From Acidimicrobiia bacterium (GTDB lineage: Bacteria > Actinomycetota > Acidimicrobiia > Acidimicrobiales > Ilumatobacteraceae), in contig JAYTVF010000423.1 of the NCBI GenBank assembly GCA_043744155.1, positions 1 to 45,311 of the forward strand: a stretch of DNA of 45,311 nucleotides. Reading direction: 5' to 3'. The notes below the pieces were generated by a model, which worked only from the letters and a program-made list of their open reading frames with translations, was not told where the DNA came from and made no database searches. Position numbers and translations under genes: made by a program. Shown one piece after another: positions 1 to 43,725 of the stretch; within the stretch, counting starts at the first letter, position 1; each line of letters begins with the position of its first letter.

Positions 1-29
1 GTTCGGCGGAATCTGAATGCCTGAATTTC

Positions 30-1238
30 TTGGCGGAGTGTAACGACACAAACCCCTGTGCATCAGTGACATCGAGGCACACCATGACCATCTCACTCAC
101 ACCCAGCCCCCGAACCGAATCGATCTCCCGTCACCAACTTCTTGTATCAAACGGAGCGCAAACGCCTCTGTATAGGAAGCCGACTGGAGTGGATCAAGGA
201 GGAGAAGCCATTTCCGACTGGAACAGCCTTTCCGGCGAGCATGCGTCCTGGGTGGCTGACGGCCGCCCAGGAGGATTGACTCACTTCGTGACTCGAGCCG
301 TGACCAGTGGTGTCACCGGCGATTCGCCCCTGGGTCGGGCCGCCGCCGCCCTCATGGCGTTGCGTCCGCAGCGATTCCCTGCCGCCCCTCCCGCCACCTT
401 GTGGCAGCGACTGTCGGCGGAGATCGAAGCCGCCGCTACCAACCCGATTGATGTCGTCATCGCCTTTGGATGCGGATGGCGCCGAGAGGTGTTCGTCGGC
501 ACAGGCGCGGGATGGCTCGGACGGTGGAACCCGGCCATCACCGAATTGGTAGCCATCGTGCGAGCCGCTACCGAGAGCGCCCGGCATCTGCTTTCCACCG
601 TTGTGCCCGAGCTGGAAATAGATCGAGACGACATCGTGGAATTGCCATCGCTGATGGCCGTCGGTTTGATGGGTAGTTGCGACTGCGAGCACCACGTGCG
701 CGGCTGCCGGTCAGGAGATCGCTGCACCCGGCGATGCTGTTTTCCCGATCACGATCTGGCTGACTGGGATCCGGCTCACGTGGCGTTTCGGGCCTTTGTC
801 GACCAAGCCGTTCGCGGCGAAGCCATCGCCACCCTGCGCGGCGGAGCGTTCGCCGAATCGATGCTGTATCGCCTATTGGAATCCGACGGCCGAGTTCTGG
901 TGCGCAAGGTGGAGGTGGCCCGGTGCCGCCAGTGCCGCACCGACTTCGAGGGCCCACGCTGCCCCGCCCCCGACTGTGGCGCCTGGGCCGACGAGGCCAC
1001 CCCACGGCGGGCCCGTTCGAACTGGCTGATCGTGCCCGAAGTAGTGGGTGGCCCGTACAGCGAGGTCAGCCGACTGGTTTGCGGTGACCAAGGCTGCGCT
1101 CGGCTATTCCCCAAACGACGGGACCCCCGCTGTCCCACCTGTGGTTGGGAACCCCCGCCCGATACCCACCCGAAGTCGGCGTCGGTGTGGCTGCGTCTCG
1201 CCCGGTCCAGCGTGGCAGGAGGCAGCTATGTCGACTGA
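30..1238 (+). CDS. Hypothetical Cys-rich protein with two zinc-ribbon-like modules; first gene of a 4-gene overlapping cassette
   Basis: ORF track 30..1238. The frame is open to the left window edge and the first start is TTG at 30, so the true start is uncertain (in-frame ATG 84; GTG 189 preceded by AGGAAG). Motifs read in the translation: CDCEHHVRGCRSGDRCTRRCC, CRQCRTDFEGPRCPAPDC and CGDQGC...CPTCGW. The stop overlaps the next gene's ATG by 11 nt. Confidence 0.55.
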   Translation: MAECNDTNPCASVTSRHTMTISLTPSPRTESISRHQLLVSNGAQTPLYRKPTGVDQGGEAISDWNSLSGEHASWVADGRPGGLTHFVTRAVTSGVTGDSPLGRAAAALMALRPQRFPAAPPATLWQRLSAEIEAAATNPIDVVIAFGCGWRREVFVGTGAGWLGRWNPAITELVAIVRAATESARHLLSTVVPELEIDRDDIVELPSLMAVGLMGSCDCEHHVRGCRSGDRCTRRCCFPDHDLADWDPAHVAFRAFVDQAVRGEAIATLRGGAFAESMLYRLLESDGRVLVRKVEVARCRQCRTDFEGPRCPAPDCGAWADEATPRRARSNWLIVPEVVGGPYSEVSRLVCGDQGCARLFPKRRDPRCPTCGWEPPPDTHPKSASVWLRLARSSVAGGSYVD

Positions 1239-2019
1239 AGTCATCCAACGCCTCGAAGCGCTTGGTCCCTGGGCGCCAGAGGAAGACACGCGCCTCATCG
1301 AGACCGAATCGGCCATGGCCATCATCGAGCGAATCCCCAACGGTGACGGCACCGTTATCGTGCTGCTCTCGGTTCGTGGTGCCGATACCCCGGGTCCCGA
1401 TGAGGTCGTGCTCACCGACGCATCGGGCCAGCGCCACGTCGGTACCCGCACCCGTCGCGGCCAATTGCGCTTCGACGATATTGCCGCCGACGGGTTCACC
1501 TTTGCCGTGCCATTGGCCACCGTCACCTCGCTGGCGACCTTTGTGCGAATCGATCGAGTGCTGGCCCACGCAGCGGCATCGGGCAGCCGAGTGATCGCCG
1601 GTTCGTTCCAGAGCCGGGACAACTCCATCGTCACTCGTATCGAAGAGAACGAGGAGGGTCGGCTCATCGTCGACCTCAGCGCTCCGACGGGATGGCACGC
1701 CGATCAATTGGTAGAGCTGCGATGGTCGGCCATCACCGTGGATGGCGTGGCCATGGTACGCACGTTGCTCTCGCCCCTGGCCGCGTCGATGGGTAAGGGT
1801 TTCACGGCCCGCTACGACTTGGGCAGCGTGCTTGGCGCCGACGCCATCGAGGTGCAACCCGCCGAACCAGCCCCCTCCGAAGCCCTGACGGTGGCAGCCG
1901 TTCGGGAAGCATTCTCGCTCTTGCTGTTCGGCTCAGCCGTTCGCGCCTGGGAGCGGCTGGCCGCCGCGGTTAGCGACGCCGAGGTGCGAGCGGCGATCAC
2001 GAAAGGTCTGAACCAGTGA
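1228..2019 (+). CDS. Hypothetical protein (about 263 aa), no family recognised
   Basis: Internal ATG at 1228 of ORF 1048..2019 (MSTEVIQRLEALGPW...), preceded by GGCAGGAGG. It overlaps the upstream stop by 11 nt, and its TGA overlaps the GTG of the next gene (GTGA at 2016-2019). Confidence 0.6.
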   Translation: MSTEVIQRLEALGPWAPEEDTRLIETESAMAIIERIPNGDGTVIVLLSVRGADTPGPDEVVLTDASGQRHVGTRTRRGQLRFDDIAADGFTFAVPLATVTSLATFVRIDRVLAHAAASGSRVIAGSFQSRDNSIVTRIEENEEGRLIVDLSAPTGWHADQLVELRWSAITVDGVAMVRTLLSPLAASMGKGFTARYDLGSVLGADAIEVQPAEPAPSEALTVAAVREAFSLLLFGSAVRAWERLAAAVSDAEVRAAITKGLNQ

Positions 2020-3740
2020 GCACGTCACTGGACGCCAACGCCCGATTGGGGGCCATGCTGTCGGGCCGACTGGACGAACGGCGAGATTTTGCCTGGTTAG
2101 CGTCACCCCATGGGCTGGCGTGGGTCTGTCGGTCGGTCTTGCAGGGCGGCCCCGCCGAGGTTCTGACCGACCCGAATCTGGATGAACTGCTGGCCCTGCT
2201 GGATGACTATCTGCCCCACCTGGCCGGCCACTCCGGGTCGGATCGTGCGCGGGCGCTGGTATCCATCGCCAGTGGCCGGCCCGATCTGGCCCGCCGCGAG
2301 TTCGGCTCCATGGAAGCCGTCGAGGTCGTTACCCAACTGTTGACCGGCCGCTCACCCGAACCGTTGGGTCAGGCCACCGCGGCGGCCCTGACCAGTCGCC
2401 ACGCCGACGGCCAGGTGATCGACCTGGCGCTGACCTTGCTGCCCGGACCCCCGGTCATCGTGCCTGATGTGCGCGCCGCCCCGCTGATGCGCTGCGATGA
2501 CGTCTTTGCCCAAGCCCTCCGCGACGCGGTGGAGGTGGCCGGCAGGCAGAGCACCGGGACCGTCGTATGGGCCGCGTTTTCGCAGCGCACGCGGGCGCCG
2601 CTCGATGTCATCGTCGGCCCGTCCGTCGGCCTCGCGGCTGCCCTGGCCGCACGCCGGCTGACATTGCGAAATGCGGCGCCGCTCGACCCGAGCTGGGTGT
2701 TCACTGGCGCCATCGACCGGCAGGGCCGCACCGTCAGCTTGCTGGATGCCGACGCCGATACCACCTCGTACCTGGCCAAGGTGACGGCGGCCGGTGATCG
2801 ATCCGTCATCGTGCCGGCCGTAGACGCCGGTGCGGTCAGCGAGATGGCAATGCGCAACAGTCTGCCGGCCAAGGTGGTGGGCGCGGCCACGGTGGATGAG
2901 GCCGAACTGCTGTTGACCCGTCACCTGGCGGGCAAGATCGGCTGGGAGCGGGCGTTGGCCGGCCGACCGGTTGACCCGCACGCACATCGCAAGGTGGGCC
3001 TGGCCTTGCTGGCCGCCGTCGTGCCGCTCAGCCTGGTGCTTATCGCAGGGTGGTGGGCCAATCACAAGTGGCAGGACCGCCAGGCCCGCGCCCGGGCCCA
3101 CGGTGCCGTGGCCACCATTCACGCCGATGGCACCACTTTCGACATCTTCCGATTCGAGGTGTCAAACGCTCAATATCGGGCGTGCGTCGCCTCGGGTCCG
3201 TGCGAGGCCGCCCGGGTTGACGGTGTCACGGTGGACGACGGTGACCCCAGCCTCGGCCCGTATCCCGTCGTTGGTGTCACGTGGCTGCAAGCCGCCACCT
3301 TCTGCGACTGGGTCGGCGCGAGGTTGCCAACGTTCACCCAGTGGCAGCAAGCGGTTGAGGAGCGCGGTCAGAACGAGTGGCCAATGAACGTTAAGGACCC
3401 GCAACTTTTGGGCGATCGGCCAAAACCGTGGATCGAGCCGAACCCGGCAGCGCTGCCTGGACTGGACGTCGTGGCCTATCTGATCGGCAATGTGCAGGAG
3501 TGGACCAACACGGTGTGCACCAGCAGCTGCCAACCGCAACCGCCCGGAAACCGAAACGTTCTGGGGACGGTGCGGATCGTGGGCCTGGACGGCACGTCAA
3601 TCAGCAGTCCTCAGGTGTATCCACCCGGCGACGCCAGCTGGCTGGAGCTGGACCACAACCCTGACGATTTCGTCAATCCAAAACATGGCGCAGCGACCCT
3701 TGGGTTTCGCTGTGCCTCAGAGCCAGGAAAGCAGATATGA
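2016..3740 (+). CDS. Multidomain membrane protein: N-terminal helical region, Lon (S16)-like Ser/Lys protease domain, single TM helix, C-terminal FGE/SUMF1-like (formylglycine-generating-enzyme fold) domain
   Basis: ORF track 574 aa. VIVGPSVGLAAALAA resembles the Lon GPSAG catalytic-Ser motif (Ser203). FTGAIDRQGRTVSL resembles Lon TGEITLRGxV. YLAKVTAAGDRSVIVP resembles Lon GGLKEKLLAA..IKTVLIP (Lys254). Hydrophobic helix VGLALLAAVVPLSLVLIAGWW at about aa 327-347. FGE-like motifs: FRFEVSNAQYRAC, YPVVGVTWLQAATFCDWVGARLPTFTQW, GNVQEWT, LGFRC. Confidence 0.75.
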   Translation: MSTSLDANARLGAMLSGRLDERRDFAWLASPHGLAWVCRSVLQGGPAEVLTDPNLDELLALLDDYLPHLAGHSGSDRARALVSIASGRPDLARREFGSMEAVEVVTQLLTGRSPEPLGQATAAALTSRHADGQVIDLALTLLPGPPVIVPDVRAAPLMRCDDVFAQALRDAVEVAGRQSTGTVVWAAFSQRTRAPLDVIVGPSVGLAAALAARRLTLRNAAPLDPSWVFTGAIDRQGRTVSLLDADADTTSYLAKVTAAGDRSVIVPAVDAGAVSEMAMRNSLPAKVVGAATVDEAELLLTRHLAGKIGWERALAGRPVDPHAHRKVGLALLAAVVPLSLVLIAGWWANHKWQDRQARARAHGAVATIHADGTTFDIFRFEVSNAQYRACVASGPCEAARVDGVTVDDGDPSLGPYPVVGVTWLQAATFCDWVGARLPTFTQWQQAVEERGQNEWPMNVKDPQLLGDRPKPWIEPNPAALPGLDVVAYLIGNVQEWTNTVCTSSCQPQPPGNRNVLGTVRIVGLDGTSISSPQVYPPGDASWLELDHNPDDFVNPKHGAATLGFRCASEPGKQI

Positions 3741-4738
3741 CCACACCCGCACAACCCTCCAAACGCGCTCCCGCCCTCTCGGCCACGGTCAATACCGCCG
3801 GGAAACCTAGTCTTCCGAATCTCGATCTGACGGCTCCGGTGCCGTTGACCGCGGCCCCCTATTGGCGGTTGAACGACAAGGATCCCGGGCATGTGTTCGT
3901 AGAACATGATGAGGGCGAACTCACCTTCAGAGTGACCATTTCAGGATCACCCGAACGGGTCAAGGCCTACGTCATGTCGGCAAAGATCTCCGTCGGTGCG
4001 GTGCCCTCCGCCGCGGCCATGGGGGAAACACCGCCCACCTTGCCCGTGCTTCGCGGCAGCATCCAGTCGGCATTGGAGGCTTTGGGAGCCCCGCCTGATG
4101 GTGCACCCGGGCTGACCTACGTGGAGTTAGCCGACCAGGCAGGGCTCGACCCGAATGATGTTGCTCGCCAGGCCACCGCCTATGTCTATGAAAACTTCGC
4201 CCAACGGCTGCGCAACGGTGAGCTCTCGATCGAGGACCTGAAGAATGTGCGATTCACCCGAAAACTGTCGGCGGCGATGCGCACCGTCGCCTGGCCGAAC
4301 CCGCCTACGGGGCAACACCTGACCATCGAGTTCTCGCTGGTCCGGCGTCCGCAAGCGGCAGACGGGGCAGACGTCGCCGATCACGCCACAACCGTGCGAT
4401 CCCTGAGGGCGGATGCGGCGGATGCGGCGGTAGCCACGGTGTTCGCCGGTGCATCGGTGGCAGGTGTCTTGTATGGCCAGAACGATTCCGACGGCTACCT
4501 TGGCACGTTCATCAACTGGGTGGAAACGAAGATCAACGTGTCTCGCGGCAGCGTGACCGCCGCGCTCTTTCGGACCAACGGTGCTCGCAATTCTCCTCAG
4601 CCCATCAACGCCGCGGCCACACCGCCGCTCGGTCTCGGATTGAACGGGTCGGAATCGGTCACGCTAGAGGTCGTGAACGACGCCAACGGACAGTCGATCT
4701 ATTCAGGCACCGGTCGGGGCTGGAAGAAGATCTACTGA
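3737..4738 (+). CDS. Hypothetical protein (333 aa), last gene of the cassette
   Basis: ORF track. Its ATG overlaps the upstream TGA (ATGA at 3737-3740). No motif recognised. Codon usage looks typical of the high-GC host. Confidence 0.6.
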   Translation: MTTPAQPSKRAPALSATVNTAGKPSLPNLDLTAPVPLTAAPYWRLNDKDPGHVFVEHDEGELTFRVTISGSPERVKAYVMSAKISVGAVPSAAAMGETPPTLPVLRGSIQSALEALGAPPDGAPGLTYVELADQAGLDPNDVARQATAYVYENFAQRLRNGELSIEDLKNVRFTRKLSAAMRTVAWPNPPTGQHLTIEFSLVRRPQAADGADVADHATTVRSLRADAADAAVATVFAGASVAGVLYGQNDSDGYLGTFINWVETKINVSRGSVTAALFRTNGARNSPQPINAAATPPLGLGLNGSESVTLEVVNDANGQSIYSGTGRGWKKIY

Positions 4739-4898: not shown

Positions 4899-5040
4899 GT
4901 AGTCGTGGAGGCCGAGAACGCCCGGTTGAAGAAACGGGTAGCGAACCAGGCGTTCGATATTGACCCGGTCTGCACCATTGGGCCGATCCACGCCAACCCG
5001 ACGGTAGGAGGGGTTGTGCGCGCCATCACCTCGCTCTAGT
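4899..5040 (+). pseudogene. Possible IS3-family OrfA (transposase N-terminal/leucine-zipper part) remnant
   Basis: A short frame below the ORF-track cutoff reads VVVEAENARLKKRVANQAFDID..., reminiscent of the ENxxLKxxxAxxxLDxxxL coiled coil of IS3 OrfA proteins. It sits in a lower-GC spacer. Weak call. Confidence 0.25.
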
Positions 5041-5107: not shown

Positions 5108-6301
5108 ATGAACGACCTCAGCAGTGCCATCGACGAAATTCTTGATCGCGTCGTATCAGATCCGCAGCCAGTCGCAGGGGTTGCTGCGGTCGTCACCAAT
5201 CGGGCCGGAAACATCTACGAAGGGGCCCGCGGCGCGCGGCGGCTGGGGAGCGGTGATGATTTCACCACCGACACGGTGTGCGCCATCTTCTCCACCACCA
5301 AAGCCATCGGTGGTACCGCCTGTCTGCAACTGGTGGAGCAGGGACTGCTCGACCTGGACGCACCGGCTCGGGAATACGTGCCCGCGATCGCCAAACTGCA
5401 GGTGCTCGACGGATTCGACCCCGACGGTCAGCCACGGCTGCGCCCGCCGAAGCGGGACATCACCACTCGCCATTTGCTCACCCACACAGCCGGGCTGGCC
5501 TATGACTTTTTGAACTACACGTACAAGGGGTTAGCGGAGGACCACGGTCAGGCCAGCATCATCACCGGCACCAGCGCCGCCCTGCAGTCGCCGTTGCTCT
5601 TCGATCCGGGTGATGAGTGGGAATATGGGTCCAACATCGATTGGGCGGGCCAAGTGGTGGAGGGTATTACCGGACGCCGTCTGGGCGAGGTGTTGGCCGA
5701 CACCGTCTTCGGTCCGCTCGGTATGACGTCGACCGCGTTCACCATGACGCCGGATATGCGGGCACGTCTGGCCACCGTTCACGCTCGCACCCCCGACGGT
5801 CTGGTGCCGATGGATGGCTTCGAACTGCCATCGGACCCTGAGGTGCACATGGCCGGGCACGGCCTGTATGGCACGGTCGACGACTACGCCAAGTTCATCC
5901 GTATGTGGCTCAACGACGGGCGGGCCCCCGGCGGAGAGCAGGTGCTCCGGCCCGAAACGGTGGAGATGGCCGCCCAAAACCATCTACCCGTCGGCATGCA
6001 CATCAAGATGCTGCCCGGGGCCATCCCGGCGTATTCCAACGATGCCGAGTTCTTCCCCGGCATGCCCAAAACGTGGGGCCTCACGTTCATGATCAACGAG
6101 GAAGATGCCCCGACCGGCCGCCCGGCCGGGTCGCTGGCCTGGGCCGGTCTCGCCAATCTGTACTACTGGATCGACCGGAAGAACGGCATCGGAGGGTACT
6201 GGGCCACGCAACTGTTCCCCTTCGCCGATGCCACATCCGTAGGTGGCTACCTTGACATGGAAACAGCGGCCTATACCCACGCCCTTCAGCGCGCCGGGTA
6301 G
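5108..6301 (+). CDS. Serine hydrolase, beta-lactamase (class C/esterase-like) family
   Basis: ORF track 397 aa. SxxK nucleophile motif in AIFSTTKAIGG. Overall similarity to beta-lactamase-fold esterases. Paralog of 7835..9013. Confidence 0.85.
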   Translation: MNDLSSAIDEILDRVVSDPQPVAGVAAVVTNRAGNIYEGARGARRLGSGDDFTTDTVCAIFSTTKAIGGTACLQLVEQGLLDLDAPAREYVPAIAKLQVLDGFDPDGQPRLRPPKRDITTRHLLTHTAGLAYDFLNYTYKGLAEDHGQASIITGTSAALQSPLLFDPGDEWEYGSNIDWAGQVVEGITGRRLGEVLADTVFGPLGMTSTAFTMTPDMRARLATVHARTPDGLVPMDGFELPSDPEVHMAGHGLYGTVDDYAKFIRMWLNDGRAPGGEQVLRPETVEMAAQNHLPVGMHIKMLPGAIPAYSNDAEFFPGMPKTWGLTFMINEEDAPTGRPAGSLAWAGLANLYYWIDRKNGIGGYWATQLFPFADATSVGGYLDMETAAYTHALQRAG

Positions 6302-7834: not shown

Positions 7835-9013
7835 TCAGCGGTTGCGATAGACCGCGCTCTCGAAGTCGACGAAGCCGGGGTAGGACGATGCGTCTTGGAA
7901 CGGCAGGATTTGCGAGCCCCAGAAGCCTCCGATGCCGTTGCGACGGTCGATCCAGTAGAACAGGTTGGCGAGCCCGGCCCACATCAGCGACCCGGCGGGC
8001 CGACCCGACGGCGTCTGGTCGTCGTTGATCTGGAAGGTGTAGCCCCACGACTTGGAGAGCCCGGGGAAGAACTCGCCGGAGTTCGACAAGGACGGAATCG
8101 ATGTGGTCCACCCGCCCGACTTCAGATCACCGAGCGCGTTGGCCGACATCATGTCCACGGTTTCAGGTTTCAGGACCCGACCATTCGGGCCGTTGCCGTC
8201 GTTCAGGAACATCCGAATGAACTTCATGTACTCACCGACCGTCGAATACAGACCATGGCCGCCCATGTCCATCGCTGGTGGTTGGGGAAGGGCCAGATCT
8301 GGCAGCGGGGTGAGCTTGCCGTCTTGCGCTCTGTCGTGGATCGTCGCCCGCCGGGCCTGCATGGACTCGGTCATCGTGAAGGCGATATCGGTCATGTCGA
8401 GGGGCCCGAAAACCCGCTCGGCGAGTACGTCACCGAGTCGCTTGCCCCGAACCGCTTCGACGACTTTCCCCGCCCAATCGATGTTCGCACCGTACATCCA
8501 GCGCTCGCCCGGGTCATGAAGGAGCACGGTGCGAATCGAGTCGTAGGTGCACGAAACGACGGTCGGTATGCCCTTGGCTGTTCGGTAAGCCAGATCATCG
8601 GCACTGAAAAACTCATACCCGAAGCCCGCGGTGTGGAGGAGCAGTTGGCTCACCGTGATGTCGCTTTTGGGTGCCCTGGTGATCGGCTGGCCATCGCCGT
8701 CGAATCCGACGAGCACTTCGATCTCTGCGATGTCGGGAACATGGCTCTTCGCTGGGCCGTGAAGGTCGACGAGACCCTCTTCGACGCACTGCATCACGGC
8801 CGCGCCGACGATCGCCTTCGTGGTCGAGAAGATCGCCATCACGGTATCGGTGGTCATCGCCTCGCCGGTACCCAGGTCGCGCACGCCCGCTGCGCCCTCG
8901 TAGAAGTTCTCGTTGCGGTTCGTGGCCATGGCGACAACGCCCGGCGCGCCGCCTGCGCGACCGACGGTGTAGTCAAGGATGTCGTCCATTGCGGTGGTCA
9001 CTGATGCTGACAT
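7835..9013 (-). CDS. Serine hydrolase, beta-lactamase (class C/esterase-like) family (paralog of 5108..6301)
   Basis: ORF track 392 aa. SxxK motif in AIFSTTKAIVG. By eye, about half of the residues are identical to the 5108..6301 product along its length. AAGGA lies upstream of the ATG at 9013. Confidence 0.85.
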   Translation of the reverse strand: MSASVTTAMDDILDYTVGRAGGAPGVVAMATNRNENFYEGAAGVRDLGTGEAMTTDTVMAIFSTTKAIVGAAVMQCVEEGLVDLHGPAKSHVPDIAEIEVLVGFDGDGQPITRAPKSDITVSQLLLHTAGFGYEFFSADDLAYRTAKGIPTVVSCTYDSIRTVLLHDPGERWMYGANIDWAGKVVEAVRGKRLGDVLAERVFGPLDMTDIAFTMTESMQARRATIHDRAQDGKLTPLPDLALPQPPAMDMGGHGLYSTVGEYMKFIRMFLNDGNGPNGRVLKPETVDMMSANALGDLKSGGWTTSIPSLSNSGEFFPGLSKSWGYTFQINDDQTPSGRPAGSLMWAGLANLFYWIDRRNGIGGFWGSQILPFQDASSYPGFVDFESAVYRNR

Positions 9014-12609: not shown

Positions 12610-13266
12610 TCACGCAAGCGACGCGCGCAGGAGAGTGTGTCCGGTTGTATCGCTCACGCCGAGGGCGATTGCCTGGCCTTTGTGAGCGGCCGTCGCAAGC
12701 GTGACGGTGAGTCGTTTGTCGCCGACGGCCATGAAGGTCCCGGCTGGCGTGCGAGTCCCGCCGGCGTCTTCCAACCATACGACGTGGATTCCGTCGGGGC
12801 GAAGACCGGCGACTTCGAGAGTGATTTGTGTTCCCCACGGCTTGTCTTCTAGACGGGCTGTTGCTTCGATCCCGGGAGCTCCGGATAGTGCTACCTGTTC
12901 GCCTCTTGCAGGTACTGACCCCCGGGACTGTGTACCGACACCGGCCACGACAACGAGTAGCGCCGCAACGGCGAGAAGGACCCGAACACGGGACCGGACT
13001 GCCTTGCGGTGGCGTTCGGCCTGAACTTGGTTGAAGAGGGCGGCCTCAAGGTGTCGCGGAGCAGAAAGGCGAGGTGCACCGACTCGAGAAGGGTCGGCCG
13101 ATGCCAGTAGCCCTGCTGTCTGCCTCAACTGCGTGAGTTCATGTCGGCAGCTCGGGCAGCCGTCGAGGTGGGCGATGACGGCAGGCGTCTCACGGTCGGA
13201 GAGTTGGCTGAGGGCAAACGTCGCGAGAAGGCCTTGCCATTCGCGGCATGCGTCAGAGGTTGTCAT
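12610..13266 (-). CDS. Anti-sigma factor: zf-HC2 (ZAS) N-terminus, one TM helix, RskA-like extracytoplasmic domain
   Basis: Internal ATG 13266 of ORF 12610..13434 (MTTSDACREW...). HLDGCPSCRHEL is an HxxxCxxC motif. TM helix VRVLLAVAALLVVVAGVG. C-terminal LEVAGLRPDGIHVVWLEDAGGTRTPAGTF resembles anti-sigma-K RskA. The start overlaps the sigma gene's 3' end by 14 nt. Confidence 0.8.
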   Translation of the reverse strand: MTTSDACREWQGLLATFALSQLSDRETPAVIAHLDGCPSCRHELTQLRQTAGLLASADPSRVGAPRLSAPRHLEAALFNQVQAERHRKAVRSRVRVLLAVAALLVVVAGVGTQSRGSVPARGEQVALSGAPGIEATARLEDKPWGTQITLEVAGLRPDGIHVVWLEDAGGTRTPAGTFMAVGDKRLTVTLATAAHKGQAIALGVSDTTGHTLLRASLA

Positions 13267-13867
13267 GCCAGCCCATTTCATCAAGAGTAAGTCGGAGTGC
13301 CTTGAGCCCGTAGAACAACCGACTACGAATCGTACCTTCGGGAACTCCGTGGCGTACGCCGATCTCAACGGCGGAGCGTCCCTCGAAGTAGGACTCGACG
13401 AGCGCGTTTCTGTGATCCTTAGTGAGTCGTCCAAGTGCTTCTTCCACCAGCCAGCCTTGCAGCGCTGTGTCGATCATTGCGTCACCGTTTTCGACCGGTT
13501 CAGTGCCAGACACAGCCACCGGAAACCGAACGGAACGGGTCCTGGCGACGTCGATAATGATGTTGCGGCAAATCGCGAAGAGCCAGCCTCGTAGCGACCC
13601 GAGGTTCTCATCAAAACGTTCGGCCGAACGCCAAGCTCGCATGAAGGTTTCTTGTACGGCTTCTTCAGCGAGGCCGTCGTCGTCAAGCGCGCGGCGGGCG
13701 TAGCCGTAGAGTTCACCGCTGTGGGCGGCGTAGGCGCGCCGGAGGAAACGTTCGTCGGCCAGGACCGGTTCTCCGCCGGTGAGTAGTCGAAGCCGGGGAA
13801 TCACGCCTTGTATACGGGCACGATGATCGGATCGTTCACTGGGTCGACGGAAACTCATGGGCACCAC
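13253..13867 (-). CDS. ECF (group 4) RNA polymerase sigma-70 factor
   Basis: ORF track 204 aa. Region 2 (LAEEAVQETFMRAWRSAERFD...LRGWLFAICRNIIID) and region 4 (SAVEIGVRHGVPEGTIRSRLFYGLKALR). Start is GTG 13867 or ATG 13858. Confidence 0.9.
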   Translation of the reverse strand: MVPMSFRRPSERSDHRARIQGVIPRLRLLTGGEPVLADERFLRRAYAAHSGELYGYARRALDDDGLAEEAVQETFMRAWRSAERFDENLGSLRGWLFAICRNIIIDVARTRSVRFPVAVSGTEPVENGDAMIDTALQGWLVEEALGRLTKDHRNALVESYFEGRSAVEIGVRHGVPEGTIRSRLFYGLKALRLTLDEMGWHDNL

Positions 13868-22237: not shown

Positions 22238-22849
22238 ATGACGCAGGGGCCGGGCAGCTGGGAACCGGGAGGGCGTGGGCGGTGTAGAAGTGAGGGAGTG
22301 CTCGATGACGAACTGGTCCGTGCTGCTGCGAGCGGCGATAGGGCGGCCTTTGGCGCGCTCGTTGATCGGCACCGCACGGCGGCCTTGCGAATTGCCTATG
22401 CCATCGCCGATGGGGAAGCGGAGGATGTCGCCCAGGACGCAACCGCGAAAGCGTTCGGGCAGTTCGACCGCTTTGATACGACCCGGCCGTTTCGACCCTG
22501 GTACCTGGCCATCGTCTCGAACGAGGCTCGCAATCGTCGCCGATCATTCCGTCGCCGATCAGCTCTGGTACTGCGGGTGGCGGCAGAGTCATCCACGGCC
22601 AGTGCGGATGATGCGGACGCTGGCGATGCTGCCGAAGCAATTGCACGTACCGAGCGCCGCCAGTACGTGCTGGATGCCATTGCCCGGCTGAACGCCGCCG
22701 ATCGCCAGGTCATCGCGATGCGCTACTTCGCCGAGCTTTCCGAGTCGGAAATGGCAGCGGCCTTGCAGATCGCGCCCGGAACGGTGAAGTCACGACTCTC
22801 ACGAGCGATGGCCCGCTTACGTGCGGCACTGGCGGGTGGGCTGCAATGA
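22238..22849 (+). CDS. ECF RNA polymerase sigma-70 factor
   Basis: ORF track 22190..22849. DDELVRAAASGDRAAFGALVDRH, DVAQDATAKAF, and region 4 VIAMRYFAELSESEMAAALQIAPGTVKSRLSRAMARLR. Start uncertain: TTG 22190, ATG 22238 or GTG 22298. Confidence 0.85.
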   Translation: MTQGPGSWEPGGRGRCRSEGVLDDELVRAAASGDRAAFGALVDRHRTAALRIAYAIADGEAEDVAQDATAKAFGQFDRFDTTRPFRPWYLAIVSNEARNRRRSFRRRSALVLRVAAESSTASADDADAGDAAEAIARTERRQYVLDAIARLNAADRQVIAMRYFAELSESEMAAALQIAPGTVKSRLSRAMARLRAALAGGLQ

Positions 22850-23787
22850 ACCCATTTGACTCGCTCGAAGCCGAACTGATCGACCTCGGTCAGCACTTGG
22901 CCATCGGCCAGCCCGTGGCCATCGGCCAGCCCGTGGAGGTCGGCCAGCCCGTGGGGGTCGGCCAGCACTTGGCCATCGGCCAGCCCGTGGGGGTCGGCCA
23001 GCAGGCAAACTTCGTGACGAGGGCGCCATGGCGTGCCCGACGCCTTCTGCAACTTGCGGCGGCGGTGCTTGTCATCCTGGCAGCGCTGTTGACATTCGGC
23101 CCGACGAGACGGGCCATCGCCAGATTTTTGGGGATCGGCGCCGTCCAAATCCAGTCGGTGCGCACGACCCTGCCAACCTCACCACCAACCACCCGATCCA
23201 GTGCGGCGCGCCCGTCAATCCCGACCGCCGGGTCAACGACCGCCGGGTCAACGACCGCCGGGCCGAGTGTCGTCGGCTCAACGACCGCCGGCTCAACGAC
23301 CGCACAGGGAACGGGGTCCACGGGTTCGGCAATTGGCACTCTGGCGTCTTCGAGCATTCCGGGCTCGGGCGCGAACAGTTCGCCTCAAACGATCAAGATC
23401 ACACCACCATTTCGGGCGCGCATGGCGCCGGATCGACTCATCCGTCAAGAACTCGACCACAGCGTCGGCGCAGGCATGCTGATTCTTAGCTATGAGAAAT
23501 ACACCTTGTTCGAGGTGGCATCGAAGAACTCGACCGTGTTCTTGATGGGAAAATTGCTGCCGCCGAACACCGTGGTGACCTTTACCAAGGTGCGAGGCGT
23601 AGATGCGGTATGGATCAGCGGCGAGCCGCACCAGGTCGTCATGTTCGATGACGACGGCACCTACCGAAGAGACACGGTCCGTACCGTAGGCAACGTGCTG
23701 GTTTGGTACGAGGACGGCGTTACGTTCCGCATCGAGGGCGTCAACAAACTCTCCGATGCGCAAGCAATCGCCGAGTCGCTGCAATAG
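22846..23787 (+). CDS. Single-pass membrane protein in the anti-sigma position, with a DUF4367-like C-terminal domain and two internal tandem repeats
   Basis: Its ATG overlaps the sigma stop (ATGA). TM helix LLQLAAAVLVILAALLTF. The C-terminus VWYEDGVTFRIEGVNKLSDAQAIAESL resembles DUF4367 ends seen in anti-sigma factors. The cytoplasmic N-terminus is mostly GQPV(A/G)(I/V) repeats. Confidence 0.7.
   Translation: MNPFDSLEAELIDLGQHLAIGQPVAIGQPVEVGQPVGVGQHLAIGQPVGVGQQANFVTRAPWRARRLLQLAAAVLVILAALLTFGPTRRAIARFLGIGAVQIQSVRTTLPTSPPTTRSSAARPSIPTAGSTTAGSTTAGPSVVGSTTAGSTTAQGTGSTGSAIGTLASSSIPGSGANSSPQTIKITPPFRARMAPDRLIRQELDHSVGAGMLILSYEKYTLFEVASKNSTVFLMGKLLPPNTVVTFTKVRGVDAVWISGEPHQVVMFDDDGTYRRDTVRTVGNVLVWYEDGVTFRIEGVNKLSDAQAIAESLQ
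22888..23001 (+). repeat. Imperfect 18-nt (hexapeptide GQPVxI/V) tandem repeat, about 6 units, inside a CDS
   Basis: DNA reads ggccagcccgtggccatc / ggccagcccgtggaggtc / ggccagcccgtgggggtc / ggccagcacttggccatc and so on. Peptide: GQHLAIGQPVAIGQPVEVGQPVGVGQHLAIGQPVGVGQQ. Confidence 0.85.
23224..23325 (+). repeat. 15-nt (pentapeptide GSTTA) tandem repeat tract inside a CDS
   Basis: gggtcaacgaccgcc and ggctcaacgaccgcc units. Peptide: AGSTTAGSTTAGPSVVGSTTAGSTTAQGTGSTGS. Confidence 0.8.
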
Positions 23788-25082: not shown

Positions 25083-28000
25083 TCAGCGGATCTGAGCCAC
25101 CGACGGATCGAGAGGCCGTGCGGTCAACTTGGCGCAGGGATCCACGGGAGTGCCGCCGAACTGATCGGCCCACTCCGAGGCAGTGAATCCACGGGCGACA
25201 GCCTGGCAGGCCCGCATGATCCAGGCGGTTCCGCCGACGGTCCACGACACGGTGGTGTCGCCCTGAATGGCGACCAGTTGGCCGTTGGTCAGGGTTAGGT
25301 CCGTGATCTGATCGGCCGAGCCAGAGATAAGCGCACCACTCAAGGCCGCGCCGCGCCGGGCGCTCCAGAGGCGCAGGTCGGCATCCTGGCCACCGGTGGC
25401 GATCACATCGTTGTCGAGCCAGGCAATGGCCGAGATCAAATCAGTGTGACCCCGCAGCGTGAACGTCTCCTGCCCGGACGTGACGTTCCAGATCTTTACC
25501 GTTCGATCATCGCTGCCGCTGGCCAACAGCCGACCGTCGGGACTGAATTGCAATGCATCCACAAACAGGTGATGGCCAGCCAGGTCACTTGACCGCCCGC
25601 TGGCGAGATCGAAGAGCTTGATGGGGGAGGCTCGGCCCGGGTGGCCCGGGTCGAGCGCTGCCGTGGCAACCAGCCGGCCATCGGGGCTGATCGCTAAGGC
25701 ACGTATCTGCCCGCCGGCATCATGCAACAGCACTTGCGAGCCGGAGCGCTTCACTAGCACGTCACCATTGTCGAGGCCGAGGGCCACGGTCCCCTCGGCT
25801 GAGGCGGCCAGATCGGTGCCGTTCGTCCCGGTTGGCACAGCCAACAACACGACGTTCGACGCTGAGATCAGGCCTCGCCTCGGATCGAGTCGCACCGGGC
25901 CCGAGGGTGTGGTGATTCGACGTTGTCTACCCCCGGAGGCCCCAATGTCCGAAGGTATGACGCTGGCCAGCGGGGACTGATTGGGAGGCGGCCATGCAAT
26001 GGCGACGCCGTCCTCATCGAGCGTGAGCACCGACCCCTCGGCCGTCGCCTGAATGCTTCGGACCAAGGCATGGTGCGCACGGCGTGGTGAACCCACGACT
26101 GCGCCCGACGGCACGGCGATCTCGACGACATCACCCGAGCGCAGCCCCCCGACGAGTACCTCGGCATTGCGCCAGGCGACGCTGGTCAACAGGATGGGCA
26201 CAATCACCGGTTCGGATCGTCCATCCCAAATGGTCACCGATCCGGTGCCTACTGCGGCGATACGACGTTGTCCCGATATTGTTGCGAGTGCAACCACTGG
26301 GTTGGGGCTTATCGACAGTGGGCCAGCCGTCAGGGCACTGGTCGACGGCGTCCAAAACGCTAGGTCACCCGTATCGGAGCCGAGCGCGACGGTGTCATCA
26401 TCGACCGCAGCGAGAGCGGAGATCGGAACGGCGCCGAACGGTCGCGAGCTTGTCGGCGAGGCGGTAGGGGTCGCCAGCGACCATTGCAGCAGCGTGCCGT
26501 CGGTGGCTGTGGCGAGCAACCAAGACCCGACGACGGCGATGGCCTGCAGGCGAGCCGCGCCGGCCGCGGCAAAGGGCACCCAACCCGGCCCGGCGATGTC
26601 GGCGATGACCAGCTCACCACCTCGGGATCCGCTGATGAGCCGCCCCGATGCCGCATCGACCACCGCCAACTCGTTCACTGCCACGCCGGTGCTGATCGGC
26701 GACGAGGCAGGAGCACCGGTAACGGCGTCGAGCACCTTTACCGTCGGGCTGCCGTCGGCCACGAACACCGTCCGCCGCCCGCCACCGGTGGCCGGGGCGA
26801 TTGCTGCGACGGGTCCCTGCAGGCCAGCCCGTAGATATGTCGAAGGTCCGGGAGCACCGAGAGCGTCCACCAGCGCCGACCAGCTATCGGTGGTGCTCGA
26901 CCGGCGCACACCTTCCAGGGTCAGCAGTAGGGAGAGATCGCGATTCTGCGACGAGGTGGCGCGACCGGCGGCGGCCAGCCGCAAGGTTTGGGCGACCTTG
27001 CGCAGGCTGCGTTCACGGGAACTTTGGCGAACCGCCACCAAGGCCACTGCACCCAGAGCCAGCGTCACGACCAAGAGCGCGGCGAGGCCGCGGCGGATCT
27101 GCTGCAACCGTCGGCTGCGCTCGGCCGTGCTGCGATGCCGATCCATTGATTGGGCCACGAATGCGGTCTCGTCCTCGGTGAGTTGCAGGGTTCGGCGCGT
27201 CACGGCATCGTGTGCCGACTCGACCTGGGTTCCGGACCGCAATGCCTCTGGTGATCGCCCCGATACCACCCACTCGGCGGTGGCTTGGGATATCCACCCT
27301 TGTAACCGTCGGGCCTCGGCGCCCGAACCTTGCAACCAATCAACCGACAGCCGCGGCCATGATCTCAGCAGCGCCTCGTGCACGATCTCGACGGTGGTGT
27401 CGGGATCATCTTTGGCGTGGGTGACGGTGAACAGCCGATAGCCCCGGAAGGTGTCGACGAACCGGGCTGCGCTTGCGAAGGAGGACGACGACAGCTCGGC
27501 CATGGTGGCTCGCCGTCGGGTCGGTTCGAGCCCGATGCCTTGGGTGGTGAGCCGCATCGAAAAGGCCCATTCCGCCAGCTGCCTGTCGCTGTCGTCGAGG
27601 TCGCCGTAGGCCCGCTCAGCCAGACGCTCGAGCGCCTTTTCGACGCCACCCGAGGCGCGATATCCCGCGATCTCCAGTCGGCCCCGATACCGGGCCTCCC
27701 AGGTAGAACGCAGCGCGACGGCCAGCAGCGGTAGGGCACCCGGGGTCGGCGGAATGTCCAGTTGGATCTCCTCGACCAGACCGTTCTCGAGCGTGAGCGA
27801 GGCGGCGCGTGCCGGTCCTTCGATGATTTCTCGCCAATCGGCACGGTCGAGCGGTTGCACTCGAACGAGGTTCGTGTCGATCAGTCGTTGCAGATCCGGG
27901 GCGACGTCAAACGCTGCGCTGACATCGGATCGGAACGACACGATGATGTGGACGAAGCGCTGAGAAGCCACCGCTTCGACAATGGCTGCGGTGACCTCCG

Positions 28001-28433
28001 CGGTCGGTACTCCGGGCAGGAAGATCTGTTCGGCCTGATCGATCCAGACCACCCGGTGTTCGCCGCCGGTGGCCAGCCCGGCCGGTACATCAGCGCGCGG
28101 ATCGAGCTCGATGATGACGCTTCCGGACTCTCGCAGCTCGGGCAGCAAACCGGCTCGGATGAGCGAACTCTTCCCGACTCCGGATGCTCCGACCACGGCG
28201 GTGAAGGGTGTGGTACCGACGCGACGGACGAGTTCCGCGATCTCGTCATCGCGGCCGAAGAGAAAGGCGCGATCTGACTCTCGGAATGGACTCAAGCCGG
28301 GGTAGGGACACGGATCGTTGGGGGTGCGGGTCGGGTCTTCGCGCCCGTACACCACGTCTCGCCCGGCCACCACTGACCCGGTGATGTGAGCCCCGTCTCC
28401 GAAGACTACCGATGAACCGCCGGGCTCAGTCAC
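25083..28433 (-). CDS. NLR-like STAND P-loop NTPase (nSTAND/NACHT-type) with an N-terminal 21-aa coupling motif, a central hydrophobic helix and a C-terminal WD40 beta-propeller region
   Basis: ORF track 1116 aa (GTG start). CPYPGLSPFRESDRAFLFGRDDEI followed by Walker A VVGASGVGKSSL (nt 28167-28190) and Walker B-like VVWIDQAEQ. Hydrophobic helix GLAALLVVTLALGAVALVAV (nt 27030-27089). Clear WD repeats, e.g. LASGSDDRTVKIWNV and GHTDLISAIAW...GGQDADLRLWS. Confidence 0.9.
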   Translation of the reverse strand: MTEPGGSSVVFGDGAHITGSVVAGRDVVYGREDPTRTPNDPCPYPGLSPFRESDRAFLFGRDDEIAELVRRVGTTPFTAVVGASGVGKSSLIRAGLLPELRESGSVIIELDPRADVPAGLATGGEHRVVWIDQAEQIFLPGVPTAEVTAAIVEAVASQRFVHIIVSFRSDVSAAFDVAPDLQRLIDTNLVRVQPLDRADWREIIEGPARAASLTLENGLVEEIQLDIPPTPGALPLLAVALRSTWEARYRGRLEIAGYRASGGVEKALERLAERAYGDLDDSDRQLAEWAFSMRLTTQGIGLEPTRRRATMAELSSSSFASAARFVDTFRGYRLFTVTHAKDDPDTTVEIVHEALLRSWPRLSVDWLQGSGAEARRLQGWISQATAEWVVSGRSPEALRSGTQVESAHDAVTRRTLQLTEDETAFVAQSMDRHRSTAERSRRLQQIRRGLAALLVVTLALGAVALVAVRQSSRERSLRKVAQTLRLAAAGRATSSQNRDLSLLLTLEGVRRSSTTDSWSALVDALGAPGPSTYLRAGLQGPVAAIAPATGGGRRTVFVADGSPTVKVLDAVTGAPASSPISTGVAVNELAVVDAASGRLISGSRGGELVIADIAGPGWVPFAAAGAARLQAIAVVGSWLLATATDGTLLQWSLATPTASPTSSRPFGAVPISALAAVDDDTVALGSDTGDLAFWTPSTSALTAGPLSISPNPVVALATISGQRRIAAVGTGSVTIWDGRSEPVIVPILLTSVAWRNAEVLVGGLRSGDVVEIAVPSGAVVGSPRRAHHALVRSIQATAEGSVLTLDEDGVAIAWPPPNQSPLASVIPSDIGASGGRQRRITTPSGPVRLDPRRGLISASNVVLLAVPTGTNGTDLAASAEGTVALGLDNGDVLVKRSGSQVLLHDAGGQIRALAISPDGRLVATAALDPGHPGRASPIKLFDLASGRSSDLAGHHLFVDALQFSPDGRLLASGSDDRTVKIWNVTSGQETFTLRGHTDLISAIAWLDNDVIATGGQDADLRLWSARRGAALSGALISGSADQITDLTLTNGQLVAIQGDTTVSWTVGGTAWIMRACQAVARGFTASEWADQFGGTPVDPCAKLTARPLDPSVAQIR

Positions 28434-41549: not shown

Positions 41550-41550
41550 G

Positions 41551-41670
41551 CGTCTGACCGGGTTCGACTGCGTGCGACCGCGTGCGACTGCGTGCGACCG
41601 GGTCCGACCGGGTTCGACTGCGTGCGACCGCGTCCGACCGGGTTCGACCGGGTTCGACCGGGTTCGACCG
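41551..41670. repeat. Intergenic tandem array: 12 contiguous units of a 10-nt repeat (consensus about SGTNCGACYG)
   Basis: cgtctgaccg ggttcgactg cgtgcgaccg cgtgcgactg cgtgcgaccg ggtccgaccg ggttcgactg cgtgcgaccg cgtccgaccg ggttcgaccg ggttcgaccg ggttcgaccg. A 20-nt super-unit, ggttcgactgcgtgcgaccg, occurs twice. Confidence 0.85.
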
Positions 41671-41729
41671 CGCCCGCTGGTGAGTCATCCCGCCGACACG
41701 CTGTCGGCTGGGGCGGGTACCATCCAGCC

Positions 41730-43560: not shown

Positions 43561-43725
43561 ACGGCTCAGCGGCGTCGGTTGGGAGATGTAGTCAGAGAGC
43601 CTCACCCACGGGGACTGTAGCCCGGCACGTTCACATGGCGTCGGTCGTTCGATTTCCTCGATGACTGCCCTCACCTGATCGGCAGCACAGAAACCGTGAC
43701 ACACCCCTGCCGTAGAGTCCGAGGC

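Follow-up and report, generated by a model that had tools for sequence, protein, structure and literature searches.

A four-gene acidimicrobial cassette centred on a predicted transmembrane Lon-fold protease, and its possible role as a protease-gated sigma switch

What purpose does a protein serve that carries a Lon-like protease on one side of a membrane helix and a domain resembling formylglycine-generating enzyme (FGE) on the other, and what are the three genes to which its own gene is chained? The question is raised by a four-gene cassette (g1 to g4, with g3 the fusion) at one end of contig JAYTVF010000423.1 (assembly GCA_043744155.1, an Acidimicrobiia bacterium of the Ilumatobacteraceae), of which we analysed positions 1 to 45,311 of the forward strand, a stretch hereafter called the window. 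An earlier reading of the letters alone (the original prediction) described these genes as obligately co-expressed accessory DNA with partners unknown, and saw in them parallels to prokaryotic conflict and signalling systems. Our answer is tentative. The operon may encode a transmembrane, protease-gated switch acting on a sigma factor or regulator, comparable to the CalpL-CalpT-CalpS system and independent of CRISPR, a function to which we assign a probability of about 45%. This proposal builds on the computed structure and conservation of the operon, on the architecture of g3 and the conservation of its catalytic residues, and on the modular co-occurrence of the genes in related loci.

The cassette and its Lon-fold protease

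The four genes follow one another on the plus strand (Table 1) and overlap at each junction, by 11 nt between g1 and g2 and by 4 nt both between g2 and g3 and between g3 and g4. The first junction is ATGTCGACTGA, where the g2 ATG at 1228 lies 11 nt inside g1, whose stop codon occupies 1236-1238; the other two are GTGA at 2016 and ATGA at 3737. A purine-rich stretch resembling a Shine-Dalgarno sequence is found 6-10 nt 5′ of every start. For g1, the start is most likely ATG 84 rather than TTG 30, judging from the GAGG that lies 6 nt 5′ of this ATG and from the orthologue in locus L001, which begins at the equivalent Met (MTILLNP versus MTISLTP); the database g1 protein has 384 amino acids (aa). 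No structured RNA was matched by Rfam within the cassette, and its two terminator-like sites compare with 3.1 expected by chance.

A search of 5.8 billion protein clusters returned only two full-length homologues of g3, with 65% and 59% identity. Two separately obtained metagenomic contigs, L001 and L002, preserve both the set of four genes and their order, with overlaps of a like kind, and the flanks differ among the window, L001 and L002. The four genes are thus real, co-inherited and very rare. The chain of genes and junctions given in the original prediction is present throughout, and its proposal of co-expression as an operon is supported by start/stop overlaps kept in three loci. Scanning genome contigs with g3 returned only relatives of the FGE domain, and a metagenome scan with the g3 alignment gave no matches. 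Identity to the window proteins (L001/L002) is 80/81% for g1, 82/70% for g2, 65/59% for g3 and 41/33% for g4, the L001 g4 orthologue being partial. Within g3, the values are 77/67% for the helical N-domain, 83/73% for the Lon-like domain and 48/43% for the FGE-like domain. The predicted cytoplasmic signalling parts are conserved at 63-90% identity, as against 33-48% for the ectodomain and g4, which is the pattern of rates expected of a constant relay with a varying sensing surface.

An AlphaFold2 model of g3, built from a 48-sequence alignment, has a predicted local distance difference test score (pLDDT) of 85.7 and consists of a helical bundle (residues 7-110), an α/β domain (118-314), a long helix (323-361) and a C-terminal domain. 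The 50 best Foldseek matches in the PDB are without exception proteolytic domains (P-domains) of Lon proteases (E about 1e-9 to 1e-8, probability 1.0), the best being that of Escherichia coli Lon (3wu6_F; TM-score 0.77, root-mean-square deviation 3.0 over 197 columns); 1rr9_A (TM-score 0.73), 5e7s and 4fwd are also among them. Ser203 is shared by all 48 relatives, and Lys255 by each of the 46 whose sequence extends over that position (the remaining two are truncated), which bears out the Ser/Lys dyad of the original prediction; Gly201, Gly205, Gly231, Asp151 and Asp270 are nearly invariant. The g3 motifs GPSVG and K-x-x-A-A...V-I-V-P resemble GPSAG and K...LLAA...VLIP of Lon. At the level of sequence the similarity is faint: the profile places the invariant Ser on Ser582, the catalytic residue of MtaLonC, but with a weak E of 0.15, profiles of the domain match Lon chains in the PDB at no better than E 0.02-0.2, and Pfam Lon_C (PF05362) gives no match at E <= 1. 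No AAA domain was detected in g3, neither the AAA+ module of LonA and LonB nor the degenerate form of LonC. On the strength of the structural model, residues 113-322 are confirmed as a Lon-fold protease domain with a predicted Ser203/Lys255 dyad. The bundle that precedes it has conserved positions (Trp27, Pro31, Gly33, Cys38, Leu62-Asp63-Asp64 and Arg77-Ala78 in alignment A4) and, as residues 1-112, no match in Pfam; by analogy with the N-domain of CalpL, it is possibly a partner-docking domain.

The sole Pfam domain of g3 is FGE-sulfatase (PF03781; residues 366-531, E 7.9e-15, 55.6 bits against a cut-off of 23.3), and comparison with PDB sequences gives matches to FGE/SUMF1, CalU17 and PorK/GldK. 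Together with the single helix and the Lon fold, this match confirms the predicted Lon-like/transmembrane/FGE-like fusion. Six cysteines are conserved in the ectodomain (390, 396, 430, 501, 505 and 566), and the GFRC strand of g3 aligns with the GFRC strand of human SUMF1. No Cys occurs between Cys505 and Cys566 in any of the three orthologues, and it is in this interval that we would expect the FGE catalytic pair (human Cys336/Cys341). No sulfatase gene was found among the scanned open reading frames (ORFs) of the window or the called genes of L001, L002, L018, L019, L024 and L025, so that the sulfatase-maturation context considered in the original prediction is not seen. Given the missing Cys pair and the lack of a nearby sulfatase gene, we conclude that the domain is probably a non-catalytic, lectin-like binding domain. 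The whole window contains no template/variable repeat pair involving the 3′ end of g3, and no reverse transcriptase accompanies the FGE-like domain; diversification of this domain by a diversity-generating retroelement (DGR) was ruled out because no such repeat pair was found. Neither a transmembrane segment nor a signal peptide was detected in g1, g2 or g4, and g3 has a single transmembrane helix and no signal peptide, from which the protease is predicted to lie inside the cell with its partners and the FGE-like domain outside.

When g3 residues 1-335 were used as the query of an exhaustive HMMER search, 46 representative clusters were obtained. The Lon-like module is always N-terminal in this family and is followed either by a transmembrane helix and an ectodomain (FGE, NHL/β-propeller or laminin-G) or by a STAND NTPase with repeats, the helix coming directly after the protease domain in about 28 of 48 members. 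Pfam assigns FGE-sulfatase to 16, AAA_16 to 11, nSTAND1 to six and nSTAND6 to two, and also finds WD40, TPR, NHL and laminin-G domains. An N-terminal module joined to varied sensors is how a sensor-coupled output domain would look. All five members with an organism name come from metagenome-assembled genomes of Acidimicrobiia or Acidimicrobiales, and one Acidimicrobiales genome, GCA_046153015.1, has at least three paralogues, two of the transmembrane-FGE type and one of the STAND type (P0015, P0020 and P0044). These are named 'hypothetical protein', 'SUMF1/EgtB/PvdO family nonheme iron enzyme' and 'ATP-binding protein' by NCBI; other relatives are called 'formylglycine-generating enzyme family protein' or 'AAA family ATPase' in the databases, and the protease goes unmentioned.

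We tentatively propose that g3 and its roughly 46 relatives form an unrecognised family of Lon-fold receptor-proteases, which would cut g2 to free or re-target an ECF (extracytoplasmic function) sigma factor or g1 and would be a CRISPR-independent, transmembrane counterpart of CalpL-CalpT-CalpS; as part of the same proposal, g1, g2 and g4 may be three new protein families. Neither the surveys PMC7159879, PMC8195603 and PMC13581612 nor the full-text searches yielded an account of a Lon-type module carried by STAND NTPases or by transmembrane proteins with an FGE-sulfatase (FGS) domain. The word 'Lon' is absent from PMC7159879 and from the 2026 STAND survey PMC13581612, and PMC8195603 gives two prefix matches to 'lon' that, where shown ('long'), are not to Lon protease. 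As the original prediction supposed, the system does not appear in PADLOC or in the literature covered by these searches.

Partner proteins and sister loci

By its sequence, g2 consists of two parts and is adaptor-like; the C-domain is the part that accompanies the protease. Homologues of the C-domain (37-45% identity) lie directly 5′ of the protease gene in four further loci (L018, L019, L024 and L025), with a 4-nt overlap in L018, L019 and L024 and a 15-nt gap in L025. Including the window, L001 and L002, the C-domain is found in seven loci, and it is immediately upstream of the protease in seven of the eight transmembrane-type loci with visible upstream DNA. The STAND-type relative P0021 shows no g2-like sequence within its 296 nt of upstream DNA.

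The gene orders of the four further loci form a modular pattern. L018 encodes a g2-like protein (173 aa), the protease and a 272-aa protein; L019 encodes an ECF sigma factor (206 aa), a g2-like protein (201 aa), the protease and a 239-aa protein; and L024 encodes an ECF sigma factor (196 aa), a g2-like protein (219 aa), the protease and a 287-aa protein. The genes of L019 and L024 overlap or abut. In L025, a g1-like gene (46% identity) and a g2-like gene (290 aa) precede a protease that has an NHL/β-propeller ectodomain instead of FGE. The N-terminal part of g2 covaries with the gene upstream: a g1-type N-domain of about 100 aa is present in the window, L001, L002 and L025; where an ECF sigma gene is upstream (L019 and L024) the N-part is short and unrelated; and L018 has neither an upstream partner nor a g2 N-part. 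A stand-alone g2 N-domain, a 98-aa protein, follows the g1 homologue P0010 in L013, where the protease is absent (28.6 bits, E 3e-9, small database). Between the two domains runs an invariant, alanine-rich motif, R-x-D-R-V-L-A-x-A-A-A-x-G, in which Arg107, Arg110, Leu112, Ala115 and Ala116 are invariant in seven of seven g2 homologues.

The Cys-rich clusters noted earlier in g1, two zinc-ribbon-like and one CDCEHH...CC, are real and invariant across eight homologues. The last follows the pattern C199-D-C-x-H-H...C208...C214...C218-C219...D222-H-D-L, with Cys199, Asp200, Cys201, His203, His204, Cys208, Cys214, Cys218, Cys219, Asp222, His223, Asp224 and Leu225 unchanged, as are the zinc-ribbon cysteines Cys281, Cys284, Cys293, Cys333, Cys338, Cys350 and Cys353. 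The family comprises these eight proteins (alignment A2) and five further homologues found in loci. Compared with PDB sequences, the g1 profile gives only weak, local, zinc-ribbon-like matches to Spt4 and RNA polymerase ribbons; a weak match to the WXG100 protein EsxH (E 0.07) is not relied on. A second branch of g1 homologues adjoins a divergently transcribed gene of about 260 aa and three tandem paralogous proteins of about 710-810 aa without a Pfam match (L014, 5398-13394; L015, 2235-6941; the same arrangement in L020, L022 and L023). Taken by itself, this neighbourhood is a gene cluster that is both conserved and uncharacterised.

ECF sigma factors recur in these loci. Besides those of L019 and L024, which adjoin g2 and g3 homologues, there is one in L016/L017, whose gene has its stop codon overlapped by a g1 homologue, and one in L013, 7 kb from the g1 homologue. 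The L019 and L024 proteins score 42.5 and 39.6 bits against TIGR02937 (cut-off 42.9; E 5e-11 and 4e-10). The sigma factors of L019, L024, L016 and L013 belong to one subfamily, with 28-47% identity and a common C-terminal motif, IGSIGPTRQR. Their shared membership ties a single sigma subfamily both to the g1 family and to the g2/protease pair, with g1 and the sigma factor occupying the same slot. The window itself encodes a conventional ECF sigma factor (Sigma70_r2/r4; 13253-13867, minus strand) followed by a ZAS anti-sigma factor (zf-HC2 and RskA_C; 12610-13434, minus strand); this sigma factor is unrelated to the associated subfamily (best BLAST E 0.019).

The fourth gene is the least tractable. 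As stated in the original prediction, g2 and g4 cannot be assigned to a family: neither has a match in Pfam, NCBIfam, PADLOC, PHROGs or the PDB sequences. A seven-sequence g2 profile gave chance-level matches only in the PDB, leaving the CalpT chains unmatched, and the g4 profile gave none. Word-based searching found no homologue of g4, and its orthologues are confined to the close loci L001 and L002. Directly 3′ of the protease, each of the seven FGE-type loci has a gene for 239-333 aa (truncated by the contig end in one case), and the NHL-type locus L025 has none, which links g4 to the FGE-type receptor and not to g1 or the sigma factor. Between g4 and its positional counterparts in L018, L019 and L024, homology could not be demonstrated (hhalign E 0.11), although a common short motif aligns. 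g4 could be a second substrate or an effector. The description of all partners as unknown thus holds for the missing family assignments of g2 and g4, and it gives way where g2 proves adaptor-like with a C-domain that tracks the protease, and where the g1 family is linked to one ECF sigma subfamily.

Table 1. Features of the cassette and its immediate borders in the window.
Feature	Positions	Strand	Basis or remark
3′ end of upstream gene for a secreted protein of about 150 aa	1..24	+	translates as VRRNLNA-stop
g1, 384-aa soluble Cys/His-rich protein; helical N-terminal half and two C-terminal zinc-ribbon-like motifs	84..1238	+	ORF and start
g1 invariant Cys/His cluster CDCEHHVRGCRSGDRCTRRCCFPDHDL, residues 199-225	678..758	+	alignment of eight homologues
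g1 zinc-ribbon-like motifs, residues 281-298 and 333-353	924..1142	+	CxxC...CxxxxC and CxxxxC...CxxC
g2, whole gene	1228..2019	+	ORF
g2 N-domain, residues 1-104	1228..1539	+	present only where g1 is the upstream gene (alignment A5)
g2 linker motif FVRIDRVLAHAAASGS, residues 105-120, alanine-rich	1540..1587	+	conserved; candidate cleavage site
g2 C-domain, residues 105-263	1540..2019	+	constant partner of the Lon-like protease
g3, whole gene	2016..3740	+	ORF
g3 N-terminal helical bundle, residues 1-112	2016..2351	+	AlphaFold2 helices 7-110, pLDDT above 90
g3 Lon-fold Ser-Lys protease domain (predicted dyad), residues 113-322	2352..2981	+	Foldseek; Ser203 codon 2622-2624, Lys255 codon 2778-2780
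g3 single transmembrane helix, residues 324-349	2985..3062	+	hydropathy peak 2.53; AlphaFold2 long helix 323-361
g3 FGE-sulfatase/C-type-lectin-like ectodomain, residues 362-574	3099..3740	+	PF03781; predicted non-catalytic, fast-evolving
g4, 333-aa soluble protein, fastest-evolving member of the operon	3737..4738	+	ORF
Possible IS3-family OrfA fragment, weak	4899..5036	+	spacer between g4 and a β-lactamase-fold gene; frame-2 peptide VVVEAENARLKKRVANQAFDI...

A possible protease-gated switch and its alternatives

From these arrangements we infer a membrane topology, a mode of activation, the cleavage of g2 and its site, the binding of g1 to a sigma factor and the nature of the signal, as follows. 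The g3 ectodomain would bind a ligand outside the cell, plausibly a glycan or an envelope component, and ligand-driven clustering of g3 would turn on the cytoplasmic Ser203/Lys255 protease. g2 would act as dedicated cytoplasmic adaptor and probable substrate, its C-domain associating with the protease and its N-domain with g1, and would be cut in the alanine-rich linker, RVLAHAAASG being the likely site. Cleavage would change the state of g1, that is, its action on a sigma factor, g1 being a candidate regulator or anti-sigma-like partner. The output would most likely be transcriptional, through an ECF sigma factor that is encoded at another place in the genome and is either set free or captured, because the g1 family is paired with one ECF sigma subfamily and a sigma factor stands in the place of g1 in the sister operons; there, the same cut would act on the sigma factor directly. 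In this scheme g4 would be a fast-evolving accessory protein tied to FGE-type receptors.

The closest known parallel is a protease-gated sigma switch of the CalpL/T/S type, and not BrxL, which the original prediction named beside CalpL-type proteases and for which PADLOC gave no match. CalpL is a Lon-fold protease with an N-domain and a sensor domain that oligomerises on ligand binding and cuts the anti-sigma factor CalpT in an alanine-rich LAAA motif, releasing the ECF sigma factor CalpS (bioRxiv 10.1101/2024.05.08.593097). g3 likewise joins a Lon-fold Ser-Lys protease that lacks an ATPase to a sensor, with a distinct N-domain in front of the protease, and here too a dedicated soluble partner appears to link the protease to an ECF-type sigma factor. 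The LAAA cut motif of CalpT has a counterpart, by analogy only, in the invariant RVLAxAAAxG linker of g2, and the order in L019 and L024 is likewise sigma factor, g2-like protein, protease. The two systems differ in that the predicted g3 sensor is an extracytoplasmic, FGE/lectin-like domain behind a transmembrane helix, whereas that of CalpL is a cytoplasmic, cA4-binding SAVED domain, and no SAVED domain was detected in g3. g2 shows no sequence similarity to CalpT, which combines MazF and DUF2080; the sigma slot of the window is held by g1, a zinc-ribbon protein without a Calp counterpart; g4 is added; and no ECF sigma gene lies in the cassette, L001 or L002, whereas one is present in the sister operons L019 and L024. 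Neither the called genes of related loci nor the roughly 24 large ORFs of the window that were scanned with Pfam include a cas gene, repeat and Rfam scans revealed no CRISPR array, and sequence searches with g3 did not recover CalpL. The logic of a sensor-coupled protease acting on a sigma-linked adaptor is known; what is new, as predicted here, is the arrangement across the membrane, the lectin-like sensor on the outer side and the families of g1, g2 and g4.

Two further comparisons help to place g3. In BlaR1/MecR1-BlaI/MecI systems, a membrane receptor with a cytoplasmic protease domain brings about cleavage of a cytoplasmic transcription regulator. g3 resembles BlaR1 in pairing an extracytoplasmic ligand-binding domain with a cytoplasmic protease, and β-lactamase-like genes lie near several cassette loci. 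BlaR1, however, is a zinc metalloprotease with several transmembrane helices and a penicillin-binding sensor, whereas g3 has a Lon fold, a Ser-Lys pair, one transmembrane helix and a lectin-like sensor, and the cassette lacks a BlaI-type repressor. With the canonical Lon proteases (LonA, LonB and LonC; MEROPS S16), g3 shares the fold of the proteolytic domain and the Ser-Lys pair. It differs from them in lacking the AAA+ module, in the helical bundle of about 110 residues that precedes the protease, in the fused transmembrane helix and sensor, in a sequence too divergent for Pfam Lon_C, and in a predicted role in specific signalling as opposed to bulk protein turnover.

Several observations weigh against a protease-gated sigma switch. 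The model of g1 is poor (pLDDT 60.9) and returns no Foldseek match at E <= 0.001; g1 has no similarity to known anti-sigma domains and no anti-sigma match in Pfam or NCBIfam, and for g2 no resemblance to CalpT or to an anti-sigma factor of any kind could be detected. A sigma factor of the associated subfamily is absent from the 45-kb window and from the visible parts of L001 and L002, and the only ECF sigma factor of the window has its own ZAS/RskA anti-sigma factor. The association with sigma factors rests on four loci, of which the g1-sigma link accounts for two independent ones, L013 and L016/L017 (one locus in two samples), and the loci compared, three close and five distant, are all metagenomic. 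The contig of P0016, an FGE-type relative, has no g2-like gene upstream. The role of g4 is left unexplained by the switch model, and conflict systems would account just as well for the occurrence of the protease module on STAND NTPases.

This last point is the starting place of an alternative that we consider unlikely, namely a conflict or abortive-infection-like system in which the FGE/lectin-like domain senses an invader molecule and the protease activates g4 as a toxin, in the manner of gasdermin or other toxins switched on by proteases, or g1, leading to death or dormancy and not to a transcriptional response. The AAA_16, nSTAND1 and nSTAND6 relatives, with their WD40, TPR or NHL sensors, have the layout of bacterial pattern-recognition and conflict proteins as described in PMC8195603 and PMC7159879, and the former proposes FGS domains as invader sensors in such systems. 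The STAND NTPase-FGS proteins of these accounts share with g3 an N-terminal peptidase effector and a C-terminal FGS sensor of the C-type-lectin fold, and paralogues of the g3 module stand N-terminal to AAA_16, nSTAND1 or nSTAND6. The N-terminal peptidases described there are caspase and trypsin, and a coupling to ECF sigma factors is known for some of the caspase systems (Kaur et al., 2020, PMC7159879; Kaur et al., 2021, PMC8195603). g3 differs in that the transmembrane helix replaces the STAND NTPase, leaving no NTPase domain, the FGS domain is predicted to face outward, and there is no DGR, which such systems have frequently though not always. Also in keeping with conflict are the fast evolution of the ectodomain and g4, the presence in one Acidimicrobiales genome of at least three paralogues with different sensor types, a diversification typical of immunity genes, and the rare, patchy occurrence of the cassette with differing flanks. 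Against it, PADLOC-DB gave no match to any of the four proteins at E <= 1, and PHROGs gave a single weak match, to the FGE-like region of g3 (phrog_18508, E 0.008), with none for g1, g2 or g4. No recognisable defence gene was seen around any locus examined, where the neighbours are metabolic, transport or envelope genes rather than the defence islands that had been suspected; BREX/BrxL and every other catalogued defence system were ruled out by the PADLOC result. No toxin-like domain was found in g1, g2 or g4, the FGE-like domain comes with neither a DGR-type repeat nor a reverse transcriptase, and a sensor predicted to be extracytoplasmic would be unusual for phage sensing. The recurrent link to ECF sigma factors points to a transcriptional output, yet CalpL/T/S shows that defence and sigma output are compatible.

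A special case of the protease-gated switch, sensing of envelope stress or cell-wall fragments in the style of BlaR1/BlaI with a housekeeping or stress role, in which the ectodomain would sense peptidoglycan or envelope glycans and the protease would inactivate a regulator and so induce nearby envelope genes (for β-lactamase-like proteins, an M23 peptidase and the small secreted proteins), strikes us as less probable again. It gains from a class-A β-lactamase-like gene that adjoins the L001 cassette and is 50% identical to the Beta-lactamase2 gene of L016/L017, the latter coming after the sigma factor, the g1 homologue and a Peptidase_M23 gene, although this class-A-like link is confined to two loci. 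Pairs of PF00144 β-lactamase-fold genes flank the cassette in the window and in L018, but the copies are only 27% identical and hence not orthologous neighbours, for which reason conserved synteny with PF00144 genes was dropped as evidence; such genes are abundant in actinobacteria. The conserved secreted proteins of about 150 aa encoded next to the cassette in the window, L001 and L002 also fit, as do the profile matches of the FGE-like domain to the envelope lipoproteins PorK/GldK. A housekeeping system, however, would be expected far more widely than in three close loci among 5.8 billion protein clusters. Least probable by a wide gap, and in our view very improbable, is that g3 is an FGE-type enzyme, for sulfatase maturation or EgtB/OvoA-like thio-histidine synthesis, with the other genes as unrelated neighbours. 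The Pfam FGE-sulfatase match, weak NCBIfam EgtB/SenA matches and the NCBI names of relatives speak for it. The NCBIfam score, however, is 31.7 against a cut-off of 360 bits, there is no Cys between Cys505 and Cys566, a DinB/EgtB N-domain is lacking, conservation within g3 is lowest in the FGE-like domain, and the overlaps and conserved partners argue against unrelated neighbours; the absent Cys pair, the lack of a sulfatase gene and the low NCBIfam score ruled out sulfatase-maturation and EgtB-like enzymes. The findings that would have refuted the original prediction, namely genes that do not co-occur elsewhere, a housekeeping context or an unconserved Ser/Lys pair, are not what we observe.

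Surroundings of the cassette and wider implications

The left border is not the low-GC edge it had been taken for. Bases 1-24 match the C-terminus (...VRRNLNI-stop) of the product of L001:1615-2067, the gene directly 5′ of g1 in L001, and the window therefore begins with the 3′ end of a conserved upstream gene followed by a 59-nt spacer before g1. Paralogues of about 150 aa with 39-58% identity are encoded at L001:994-1449 and, 3′ of g4, at L002:4204-4659; all have an N-terminal hydrophobic, signal-like segment, and none has a match in Pfam or PHROGs. These secreted proteins carry two cysteines, and their genes precede the cassette in the window and L001 and follow it in L002. Judged by sequence, this gene is a fifth cassette-associated gene, and its product could be a target, a ligand or a co-regulated product.

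The argument for accessory DNA from base composition fails as well: the cassette has 65.6% GC against 64.0% for the window, which rules out a compositional island. An origin in phage or plasmid was likewise ruled out, by the PHROGs results and by tblastn searches in which the g3 protease region found no match in phages and plasmids and g1 none in plasmids, with no relatives on viral contigs. On the right, the suggested remnant of an IS3 OrfA received weak support. The spacer peptide EAENARLKKRVANQAFDI (4899-5036, plus strand) resembles the C-terminal part of IS3-family OrfA; a tblastn query made of two alternative reading-frame translations joined end to end matched 11 plasmid records (best E 0.01), the eight listed all being annotated as (IS3-family) transposases, and Pfam gave no match to the peptide.

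Further features were noted in the window and in related loci. The two PF00144 β-lactamase-fold paralogues (5108-6301, plus strand; 7835-9013, minus strand) are inverted and 53% identical, and an inverted repeat (6023-6274/7847-8098, 71% complementary) lies within the pair. Class-A β-lactamase-like genes (PF13354) are found at 1-792 (minus strand) of L001 and 5415-6254 (plus strand) of L016, a hint of a cell-wall-related regulon. A 1116-aa nSTAND1 NTPase (PF20703, E 1e-80) with WD40 β-propeller repeats, encoded at 25083-28433 (minus strand), 20 kb from the cassette, is of the typical STAND pattern-recognition/conflict type but has no Lon-like module. The stretch 41542-41691, in the spacer between an ORF at 40458-41549 and a gamma-glutamyltranspeptidase gene (41995-43758, minus strand), holds a 10-nt unit (GTBCGACYGS-like) repeated in tandem about 15 times, and an 18-nt tandem repeat of about eight units (22868-23011) encodes a hexapeptide repeat inside the ORF 22846-23787, which has no Pfam match.

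If the cassette proved to be a conflict system, a Lon-type effector with an outward-facing FGS sensor would be added to bacterial immunity. If, on the other hand, it is a protease-gated switch as we propose, then such sigma switches, known from CRISPR-associated CalpL and TPR-CHAT, would represent a more general signalling design, one that could be wired to outside sensors or to STAND receptors. A ligand-gated, sequence-specific protease with a defined substrate linker could also serve synthetic biology. Three protein families that currently have no annotation would be defined, and database names would be corrected to include a protease module now unrecognised in annotation. g3 and its relatives would then add to the known bacterial receptors a class that crosses the membrane once, its lectin-like sensor exposed on the outer side and its Lon-fold protease facing the cytoplasm.

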